Source: a virus
Taxonomy: Duplodnaviria; Heunggongvirae; Uroviricota; Caudoviricetes
Reading direction: 5' to 3' (one strand)
DNA: 31,479 nucleotides
Virus record (IMG/VR): IMGVR_UViG_2534681774_000029
Below are positions 1-3,319 of the stretch, in pieces. Position 1 is the stretch's first letter, and each line of letters starts with the position of its first letter. The position numbers were made by a program, and so were the translations under genes. The notes beneath the pieces are model-generated. The model saw only the letters and a list, made by a program, of their open reading frames with translations. It was not told where the DNA came from and ran no database searches.

Positions 1-607
1 TTACGCCTTCTTTATATCCTCCATAATTCCACAGTGGGACATATTTGGGACATTATCACCAAAAATGTCGTCTATTTTCCTTGCATGCTCTGTCAAATGA
101 TTAGGCGCAAGGTGAGCATACCTACGAACCATTTCTATGGACTCCCATCCGCCCATTTCCTGAAGCACAGATAATGGGACGCCTGACTGGATCAGCCAGC
201 TTGCCCAGGTGTGTCTGAGGTCATGGAAACGGAAATCTTCAATTCCTGCACGACGACAAGCTGATAGCCATGATGTCTTGCTGTCGATGCGCATCTTCCT
301 GACCGCAGGCGTTGATGTTCCATCTGCTCGCTTAGCCGCCTTGGTATGTACAAACACCCATTTGTGATGCTTGCCTATTTGATCACGCAACACTTTACAG
401 GCGGTATCGTTCAGCGCCACACCAATGGCGCGGTTTGATTTGCTCTCTTCTGGATTCACCCAGGCAACTCGTCGCTGCATGTCGATTTGTTGCCATTCCA
501 GATTTATGATGTTCGACTTTCTCAGACCAGTTGCCAGCGCAAACTTGACGACAGATTTCAGTGGTTCGGGGCACTCATCAATAAGGCGTTTTGCTTCCTC
601 CTTTTCC
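1..607 (-). pseudogene. int: Phage integrase (tyrosine recombinase), C-terminal portion, separated from its N-terminal part by an IS66-family insertion
   Basis: Minus-strand reading frame from 606 down to the stop at 3..1 reads ...[31 protein letters not shown]...[39 protein letters not shown]..., a typical tyrosine-recombinase catalytic region. After removing the IS and one target-duplication copy it is in frame with the N-terminal fragment at 3320..3876 (intact gene would be about 387 aa). Confidence 0.8.
600..607. repeat. Target site duplication CCTTTTCC (left copy) flanking the IS66-family element
   Basis: The identical 8-mer CCTTTTCC occurs at 600-607 and 3312-3319, immediately outside the GTAAGCG termini of the element. 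An 8-bp duplication is characteristic of IS66-family insertions. Confidence 0.75.
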
Positions 608-637
608 GTAAGCGGCTCGCCAGAACCGTATTGATAT

Positions 638-2209
638 TTACTGAGAGGTCAGATCAACTTTCCAGGGCAACAGATCGCGTACCCGGTTTGCCGGCCAATC
701 CTGGATATGCTCAATGACGTAACGCAGCCATTTTTCTGGTTCCACATTGTTCAGACGGCATGTGCCGATCAGCGAGTACAACACCGCCGCATGTTCGCCA
801 CCGCTGTCGGAACCCGCGAACAGCCAGTTTTTCCGGCCTACGGCCACTCCCCGTAAGGCGTTCTCTGCGATGTTGTTGTCGATTTCCACCCAGCCATTAC
901 TGCAGTACACGTTCAGGCCATCCCACTGTTTCAGCAGGTATGCGAACGCTTTTGCCGTATCCGAGTGACGCGACAGTGTTTTCATCTGAGTCTGTATCCA
1001 GTCATACAGTGACTGCATCAGTGGCGCAGCTCTGGCTTTTCTTGCCGCCAGACGCTGTTCTGCTGTACATCCCCGGACTTCTGCCTCTATGGCATACAGT
1101 TCACCGATACGCTGCAGGGCTTCCGTGGTGATGTCGGTGGGCACTCTTGCATGCACATCGTGGATTTTTCTCCGGGCATGAGCCATACACGCGGCTTCCG
1201 TTATTCTGCCGGATTCGTATAACACCCGGTAACCACCGTAAGCATCGGCCTGAAGCACACCGCTGTAACCGGCCAGATGATTTTGTGGATGGATACCTTT
1301 CCGGTCCGGTGAGTACGCGAACCAGACCGCCGGGGGCATTTCCGAACCGGCGTTACGGTCATCACGGACGTAGACCCACAGCCGGGCGGTCCGGGTTTTA
1401 CCGCTGCCCGGCTCCTGGACCGGGACGGGGATATCATCAGCATGGACTTTACCGGGCATCAGCACATACTGGCGCAGGACGTCATACAGCGGCTCCAGCA
1501 GTTCAGCAACGGCACCTGTCCAGCGCCCCAGCGTGGCGCGGCTCAGCTCCACGCCCTGGCGACGGTATATTTCTGACTGGCGGTATAACGGCAGATGGTC
1601 TGCATATTTCCCGGTAACAACATGGGCCAGAAGCCCCGCTCCGGCATAACTGCGTGCAATGGGTTTTGAAGGTACTGTTGCCTGCACGATATGGTCGCAC
1701 CGACAACAGGCCAGTTTCGGACGTTGTGTTTCGATAACCTTAAAGGCGCTGCTGATAAGCTCCAGTTGCTCTGACACATCACACCCCAGAGGACTGAGGT
1801 CACCACCACAGGCCGGGCAGCATTCCTCTTCCGGCCGGATGACCCGGGTTTCACGGGGAAGTGAGGCCGGTAACGGTTTACGGGCTGAAGACTGGCGCAG
1901 GGCGGATGGCAGTACCGGGTCATATTGCTCACCCAGCGTTTCCGCCATTTCTTCCTGAAGTGCGCTGATTCGCTCCTGTGCTTCCTGTATCTGCCGTTCG
2001 GTTTTAGCGCGAAGTTTTTCTGAGCTTTTACCGAACTGCATGCGCTGCAGTTTCGCAACCAGCGCCTTCAGCCGGTTGATTTCGGAAGCATAAGCCGCCA
2101 CCCGCTGTGAGAGCAGGCGGTTGTATTTCGCCATCTGGCGGATGGTGTCCTGTTGCGTCTGCAACAGTGCCCGCAGGCGGGCATTCTCATGAGCAAGTGA
2201 GGTGTCCAT
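638..2209 (-). CDS. tnpC: IS66-family transposase TnpC (orf3)
   Basis: 523-aa ORF; size and position (third gene of the element) match the IS66 orf3 transposase. The sequence contains a Cys-rich motif (CCPACGG...CCRCD). Confidence 0.85.
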
Positions 2210-2228
2210 ATCCTCACTTTACAACGGG

Positions 2229-2576
2229 TTATATGCGGATGCCAGCGCGTTCCGTTCGTTTCGGGTGCTTCCAGTCGATGCCTTCGAGAAGCATGGGCAA
2301 CTGAGCCGGAGTAAGGTGAACCTTTCCATCGCGGGTGACCGGCCAGACGAAGCGGCCCCGCTCCAGGCGTTTGGTGAAGAGGCACAGTCCGTCACTGTCA
2401 GCCCACAGCACTTTTATCTGGTCACCCCGGCGTCCGCGGAAGATGAACAGATGCCCGGAGAACGGGTCATCCTTCAGGACGTTCTGAACTTTTGAGGCCA
2501 GGCCGTTAAAGCCATTTCGCATATCGGTGATACCGGCAACCAGCCAGATACGCGAACCGGCAGGGAGAGATATCAT
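2229..2576 (-). CDS. tnpB: IS66-family accessory protein TnpB (orf2)
   Basis: 115-aa ORF MISLPAGSRIWLVAGITDMRNGFNGLA..., the conserved IS66 Orf2 sequence. Its start overlaps the tnpA stop (ATGA). Confidence 0.85.
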   Translation of the reverse strand: MISLPAGSRIWLVAGITDMRNGFNGLASKVQNVLKDDPFSGHLFIFRGRRGDQIKVLWADSDGLCLFTKRLERGRFVWPVTRDGKVHLTPAQLPMLLEGIDWKHPKRTERAGIRI

Positions 2577-3226
2577 CAGTGGCTGCTCCCTTTCATTTCG
2601 CGGATAAGTGTCTGTAATAACGCCGGTGTCAGTTCACCTTTCAGCCTGAGAGTTCCGGCCGGCAGAACCAGCTCGCAGCACAGACTGTCTGGCAGTGTAT
2701 TTATCTGTTCAGGTATCTGCACTGGTGCCGGGATTTTATTATCCGGCTCCGGAGTTAACGTCACGGGAAGTAGCGATGTTTCATGTTCGCCGGGCGGTTG
2801 CAGGCCACCGTTACGCCAGAGATGCCGCCAGTTAAAGAGCAGGTTATCGTTAATTCCATTCTCTCGAGCTATTTGTGCGACACAGGCACCGGGTAAAAGA
2901 GTTTGCTGAACCAGTCTCCATTTAAACTCCGGTGAAAATCGGTTCCGGCGGGGTTTCTCTGCTTTCACAGGCTGAGTCACGGTCGGGGCTGAAGGGTATC
3001 GCCCCGGGAAAAGAGCCCGGGCCAGTTGCCCGCAGGAATATTCACCGGAAAGAGGCCAGTCAGTGAATACCTGGTGAAATCGCCTCACCAGAGAAAAAAT
3101 GGCGGTTTTGCTGACACCAGTCTGCGCAGAAATGCGCGGGTACGACAGTGACTCGTCAAATCTCAGCTGTAGCACACGCAGGATCAATTCTGGATTATCT
3201 GCCAGTACCGCTTTTCGTGCATTCAT
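2576..3226 (-). CDS. tnpA: IS66-family TnpA (orf1)
   Basis: 216-aa ORF, first gene inside the right inverted repeat, with a helix-turn-helix-like N-terminus; translationally coupled to tnpB. Confidence 0.75.
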   Translation of the reverse strand: MNARKAVLADNPELILRVLQLRFDESLSYPRISAQTGVSKTAIFSLVRRFHQVFTDWPLSGEYSCGQLARALFPGRYPSAPTVTQPVKAEKPRRNRFSPEFKWRLVQQTLLPGACVAQIARENGINDNLLFNWRHLWRNGGLQPPGEHETSLLPVTLTPEPDNKIPAPVQIPEQINTLPDSLCCELVLPAGTLRLKGELTPALLQTLIREMKGSSH

Positions 3227-3311
3227 CTTAAATGTCCTTTTACTGCGAAAATGGACATTAGTATCGGAAACAGGAAAGGGAGGCGAAAGACGGTTTAAAT
3301 GATGCGCTTAC

Positions 3312-3319
3312 CCTTTTCC
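3312..3319. repeat. Target site duplication CCTTTTCC (right copy)
   Basis: Identical to 600-607; directly abuts the IS66 right end. Confidence 0.75.

Follow-up and report, generated by a model that had tools for sequence, protein, structure and literature searches.

The window examined here is a 31,479-bp stretch of DNA (IMG/VR virus record IMGVR_UViG_2534681774_000029, Caudoviricetes). It holds a lambdoid prophage whose integrase gene, identified below as intD, is split by a complete 2704-bp copy of the insertion sequence (IS) IS679, a member of the IS66 family. The 3' part of intD occupies 1–607 on the minus strand and consists of the last two bases of codon E190, codons 191–387 and the stop; it was 100% identical to intact intD. 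The 5' part is found at 3295–3876 on the same strand, where codons 1–189 run into four IS-encoded codons and a stop (..WLEK-GKRII*), making a product of 193 amino acids (aa). IS679 itself lies at 608–3311, also on the minus strand, and showed 100% full-length identity to annotated IS679 copies.

The sequence CCTTTTCC was read directly to the left (600–607) and directly to the right (3312–3319) of the element. The two copies of this 8-bp target-site duplication are the same at every base; eight bases would agree by chance at a single fixed position with a probability of ~1.5e-5. The ends of the element form imperfect inverted repeats: the repeat at the tnpC end is GTAAGCGGCTCGCCAGAACCGTATT (608–632), and the one at the tnpA end is the reverse complement of GTAAGCGCATCATTTAAACCGTCTT (3287–3311). 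The two repeats agree at 17 of 25 positions, with the first seven (GTAAGCG) identical at both ends. Neither the duplications nor the repeats are assigned a strand.

Three genes fill the element, all on the minus strand and thus oriented in the same direction as int, with tnpA and tnpB upstream of tnpC. The tnpA gene (2576–3226) encodes an accessory protein of 216 aa that matched PF01527 and NF038385 (E = 6e-85). The second accessory gene, tnpB (2229–2576), encodes 115 aa and matched PF05717 and NF033819; its start overlaps the stop of tnpA in the sequence TGATG (2574–2578). The tnpC gene (638–2209) encodes a DDE transposase of 523 aa, which in a Pfam search matched PF03050 (E = 1.3e-103) together with zf-IS66, LZ_Tnp_IS66 and DDE_Tnp_IS66_C (PF13005, PF13007, PF13817), and in NCBIfam scored 474 bits against model NF033517 (cut-off 180, E = 2.7e-142). 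All three proteins scored well above the curated cut-offs of the IS66-family models. At the nucleotide level the element was 100% identical over 2704 bp to copies annotated as IS679 on E. coli chromosomes and plasmids, the assignment being a comparison with IS679 copies annotated by PGAP and not with the ISfinder type sequence. The sister element ISCro1, present in strain A34, was just 96.2% identical to the IS in the window. An initial annotation of this DNA, made from the sequence alone, had described an IS66-family element at 608–3311 with GTAAGCG termini, the gene order tnpA-tnpB-tnpC and a perfect 8-bp duplication; each of these features was in place, and the family assignment was borne out by the protein matches and by the identity to annotated IS679. 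IS679 was reportedly published by Han et al. in 2001 (J Bacteriol 183:4296, as cited in PMC12898284).

When the IS and one copy of the duplication were removed, positions 1–607 joined 3320–3876 in a single open frame of 1164 nt encoding 387 aa. At least 40 complete E. coli genomes carry an annotated, intact intD that the rejoined gene matched at 100% identity over its full length; against the intD allele of K-12 the identity was 99.4%. Matches covering at least 80% of intD occurred in 1646 of 5426 complete E. coli genomes, with a median of one place per genome. In the source contig, the argU gene for tRNA-Arg(TCT) lies 15 nt past the int stop. Judged by these matches, the interrupted gene is intD, the DLP12-type tyrosine integrase of a lambdoid prophage at argU. 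Because the rejoined gene is 100% identical to intact intD, the IS is the sole lesion in int. The same had been proposed beforehand, along with an in-frame rejoining to a tyrosine recombinase of about 387 aa, and both proposals hold.

The position of the break indicates what the insertion would do to the protein. The rejoined product contains a PF00589 catalytic domain at residues 184–355 (E = 5.5e-47), and its ATGLR215, H314-DL-R317 and RRY349 motifs align with HP1 integrase and with a XerC-like structure. The Pfam catalytic-domain match begins at residue 184, and the break, with K189 on one side and E190 on the other, lies about five residues inside it. All of the catalytic residues (R215, H314, R317, W340, Y349) are encoded in the 3' part, downstream of the break. 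The product of the 5' fragment corresponds to the N-terminal half of Int and has no catalytic residue. The longest open reading frame (ORF) of the 3' part starts at M229 (1–480, 159 aa); no ATG, GTG or TTG start lies upstream of M229 in the 3' fragment, so its product would be without R215. No fragment combines the N-terminal half of Int with the full catalytic set, and the sequence shows that active Int cannot be made from this locus.

A separate observation concerned the same region of the gene. In ~1000 genomes, a different integrase matched only intD nt 46–594 (window 46–594), at 92–94% identity. A match limited to this interval places a mosaic joint close to where the catalytic domain begins, no more than ~10 nt from the point at which the IS inserted.

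We then compared the locus with related genomes. The O111:H2 strain 12A carried the same prophage, with 7 substitutions in ~28 kb (99.965% identical), and its intD was intact beside argU. Aligned with the window, the 12A intD is a natural empty site for the insertion; this is the uninterrupted counterpart against which the initial annotation had proposed to compare the locus. The int-IS junction of the window was present in none of the 5426 complete E. coli genomes. An exact-sequence look-up of the 193-aa truncated product (…WLEK-GKRII*) recovered it on 16 public contigs, comprising two NCBI assemblies, several ENA metagenome scaffolds and Logan runs, and contig AIHE01000004.1 of assembly GCA_000250295.2 was identical to the window across the 9876 bases common to the window and the stretch of this contig that was compared. 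The presence of the junction on 16 public contigs indicates that the insertion marks a lineage. The insertion had also been called recent, which fits the perfect duplication, an int without divergence and an IS that is 0–2 nt apart from other IS679 copies; yet the insertion is fixed in its lineage, of which many samples have been taken.

GCA_000250295.2 is a draft, and IS679, being multicopy, might have been misplaced into int during assembly. However, the tnpA-side junction between int and the IS stands on all 16 contigs of the two NCBI assemblies, the ENA metagenomes and the Logan runs, the two 8-bp copies are identical and removal of the IS restores the gene exactly. We therefore regard an assembly artefact as extremely improbable.

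Apart from int, the prophage is nearly intact. In 12A, a region of ~47.8 kb is bounded on either side by a 47-bp repeat of the argU 3' end, and the attL copy of this repeat is also present in the source contig. An excisionase-like (xis) ORF of 123 aa with an HTH_17 / 'excise' domain lies at 3732–4106 on the minus strand and overlaps the start of int. It is intact, and the phage records PhiR49_1, Kati and PhiR29_1 contain it at 100% identity. In the sister genomes, PGAP annotated just the first 22 codons of this ORF, as an 'incomplete' helix-turn-helix protein. We considered whether xis is a pseudogene, as that label would have it, and rejected the idea on the grounds that deposited phage genomes contain the full 123-aa ORF unchanged; the label is probably an annotation artefact.

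The genes for an S24-type repressor, Cro, an O-like protein, Q, lysis, terminase, portal, protease, capsid and tail are open in 12A according to PGAP, and the core lambdoid modules, from repressor through tail, are likewise open in the window. From 3320 to 28000 the window matched the viable Escherichia phage PhiR29_1 (PV340556) at 98.8% identity over 96% of 24.7 kb, and the int of PhiR29_1 differed from the rejoined gene by 3 nt. The break in int is the main lesion seen; almost every other phage gene of the window, as well as xis and attL, is intact. Cargo genes were also observed, named after the genes annotated in the 12A prophage (99.97% identical): a PerC-family transcriptional regulator (10687–11181), an OmpD/NmpC-type porin (14960–16057, minus strand) and Bor (17848–18141, minus strand).

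On this evidence it is very likely that IS679 transposed into intD of a lambdoid prophage at argU and left that prophage immobilised. In the sequence of events that we propose, an IS679 copy would have transposed into intD and made its usual 8-bp target duplication. With int destroyed, the prophage would be without site-specific excision or re-integration and would be inherited vertically. Because the break lies upstream of all catalytic residues while the xis ORF and attL are intact, the insertion probably stops the prophage from cutting itself out.

There is experimental precedent for such an outcome in E. coli O157 Sakai. In that strain, Sp3, Sp11 and Sp12 are lambdoid prophages with a disrupted Int that were predicted to be non-excising; after mitomycin C treatment, excised circles were found for nine Sakai prophages, and Sp3, Sp11 and Sp12 were not among them (PMC2669165). 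With this precedent, the description of the window prophage as 'locked in place' is a reasonable inference. The further claim that it had been domesticated is too strong, since the genes for the S24-type repressor, Q, lysis and packaging have kept their open frames. With these genes open, induction should still kill the cell, and we expect the prophage to stay SOS-inducible and potentially lethal, that is, immobilised but not domesticated. By the established biology of lambda int mutants, induction of this prophage should still bring replication in place and lysis.

Several points weigh against the view that loss of intD immobilised an otherwise nearly intact prophage. Neither the window nor the source contig reaches attR. 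The KilA-N ORF (12563–13372) has a nonsense codon relative to PhiR29_1 (Q202 to stop, 13166–13168), and the same ORF in 12A was flagged by PGAP for an internal stop. The tape-measure gene may contain a frameshift, with an additional T at 31474 (TTTTT at 31469–31479, versus TTTT in 12A) that would end translation early, right where the window ends, with a product of 348 aa instead of 853 aa; if this frameshift is real, the IS was not alone in making the phage defective. Lastly, an Int of the same specificity could be supplied in trans by another prophage of the source genome.

Taken together, the KilA-N stop, the additional T in the tape-measure gene and the genes that PGAP flagged as frameshifted in 12A (a hypothetical gene, and a tail-fibre assembly gene outside the window) raise the possibility that the prophage was defective beforehand, in which case the insertion would have been inconsequential. 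We consider this unlikely. All core lambdoid modules are open in both the window and 12A, and the similarity to phage PhiR29_1 is high. KilA-N lies in the region equivalent to lambda nin, which by our reasoning is usually dispensable. The tape-measure frameshift occurs 36 nt from the source contig end and is present in that one assembly only; we rejected it as a second lesion because it is probably an assembly error.

The prophage might alternatively not be locked at all, if Int acts in trans or if homologous recombination, with either the 47-bp att repeats or copies of IS679 as partners, removes the prophage. Some genomes do hold two or three places matching intD, IS679 copies do recombine (see the exchanged flanks in FDAARGOS_1059 below), and interactions between prophages have been documented in Sakai (PMC2669165). 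In contrast, the median genome has one intD place, and no circles were reported for the Int-disrupted prophages of Sakai despite the many lambdoid prophages resident beside them (PMC2669165). Escape by these routes seems to us improbable, and immobilisation by the IS679 insertion remains the preferred reading.

IS679 was abundant in the closest complete genomes, FDAARGOS_1059 and 12A, which had ~15–16 chromosomal IS679 places each. Both flanks were read for 12 distinct sites other than that of the window: nine had perfect 8-bp duplications, one had a duplication of 9 bp and two had swapped flanks. The 9-bp duplication, CAATAATCA, surrounds a copy in an ibs toxin intergenic region (locus L021, 1899–4602). 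The swapped flanks belong to two IS679 copies ~16 kb apart at ~704–728 kb of FDAARGOS_1059 (loci L023 and L024), whose 8-bp flanks GTTAATCT and GAATAATC are exchanged, which indicates an inversion by recombination between the copies.

The survey of related strains revealed that intD has been split by IS679 or ISCro1 independently four times. In the window source, IS679 sits at intD nt 600–607 counted from the stop end, with the duplication CCTTTTCC. FDAARGOS_1059, which has the same prophage (100.0% identical by BLAST), carries IS679 at nt 329–336 from the stop end, with the duplication CGCTTAGC. Strain A34 has ISCro1 at nt 412–419 from the stop end (CAGCGCCA), and strain E100341 has IS679 in the opposite orientation at nt 235–242 from the start (GATAAAAG). 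The three splits outside the window are those at L001 6337–9040, L002 6420–9123 and L032 1501–4204. IS679 had also hit three further tyrosine-integrase genes, namely a serU-site prophage integrase, a P2-like integrase (at its 3' end) and an island integrase of 12A (L027 2501–5204, L022 1899–4602 and L003 4005–6708).

These repeated hits could mean that the insertion into int was non-random, either because IS679 prefers integrase genes or the argU end of the prophage as its target, or because bacteria with a knocked-out int were favoured and such insertions built up. Two of the four intD splits are in near-identical O111 prophages. Furthermore, when IS679 sites were picked irrespective of their flanks, 4 of 14, a small sample from few lineages, fell in tyrosine-integrase genes, versus an integrase share of ~3% expected from gene length within prophages (rough binomial P ~6e-4). 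On the other side, the duplicated sequences, positions and orientations all differ among the four splits, and the targets have no clear consensus. Among distinct sites of the IS679/ISCro1 type on IMG/VR viral contigs, just one of 66 was in an integrase, which equals the neutral expectation; these sites are mostly ISCro1-like, with only two at least 99% identical to IS679, and prophage predictions may trim split integrases at their ends. Moreover, intD has also been lost via two IS3-family insertions, an IS1-associated truncation and plain deletions, fitting the general decay of a gene that the host can dispense with. A non-random hit on int is a possibility to which we give a minor place. The broader proposal, that IS679 and possibly its close relatives hit prophage and island tyrosine-integrase genes far above chance, with intD at argU as a repeated target, whether by an unrecognised structural target preference or by selection that immobilises useful prophages, we hold to be slightly more doubtful still.

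Several forms of such a preference were considered and set aside. A family-wide preference for integrases was unsupported by the IMG/VR sites. A preference for a target sequence found no clear consensus across 13 distinct IS679 sites including that of the window, and there was only a loose A/T-rich tendency; the duplications at these sites included GGAAAAGG, GCTAAGCG, GGAAGAAC, TTTAATTC, AATAATCC, ACTGTATC, GGTTATCG, GTATATTT, GTATTAAG and GATAAAAG, among others. Among complete E. coli genomes, we also saw matches to the junction that reached 8–21 nt into the int flank, as a shared target might produce. Two of the sites were fetched, one adjoining ISAs1/Rhs genes and the other within a gene of the PAPS-reductase family, and the idea of flank similarity was rejected because they share only T/C-rich runs with the int flank.

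One strain has several elements at the end of the prophage at which int lies. In strain EL361 (L156, 1982–7311), int is in three pieces owing to two IS3-family elements, and a third copy sits between int and a remnant of xis; this is an extreme IS pile-up at this prophage end. We read the repeated loss of intD as the general decay of a host-dispensable gene, most visible in IS-rich strains, with a modest chance of a more specific cause.

Overall, our analysis confirms the observation of the initial annotation down to the single base, and its interpretation was largely sound. The event is an ordinary one of a known kind, and both the element (IS679) and the gene (intD) are known. IS disruption of prophage genes, the integrase included, has been documented (PMC2669165), as has the accumulation of IS elements in decaying prophages (PMC7744054). 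The insertion in the window offers no new mechanism; it is a textbook first step of prophage decay, in which one lesion would end horizontal mobility while the cargo (the PerC-family regulator, the porin and Bor) stays. It also provides a clean, datable marker of one E. coli lineage close to O111:H2. Wider interest is limited to the repeated, independent loss of intD in related strains, which, if truly non-random, would have implications for the fixation of prophages in bacterial genomes.

The element does not differ from IS679, with which it shares the length of 2704 bp, the tnpA, tnpB and tnpC genes, the GTAAGCG termini and the 8-bp duplication, and the insertion site alone is peculiar to the lineage of the window. 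The integrase is the same gene, at the same argU position, as IntD of DLP12 and other argU-site prophages, but in the window the IS interrupts it at codon 189/190. DLP12 in K-12 is a remnant prophage, whereas the window prophage is near full length. Phage PhiR29_1 shares the gene order and an identical xis with the window, but its int is uninterrupted and its KilA-N ORF open. The Sakai prophages Sp3, Sp11 and Sp12 are likewise lambdoid with a disrupted integrase, but they have several further defects, whereas the window prophage has few.

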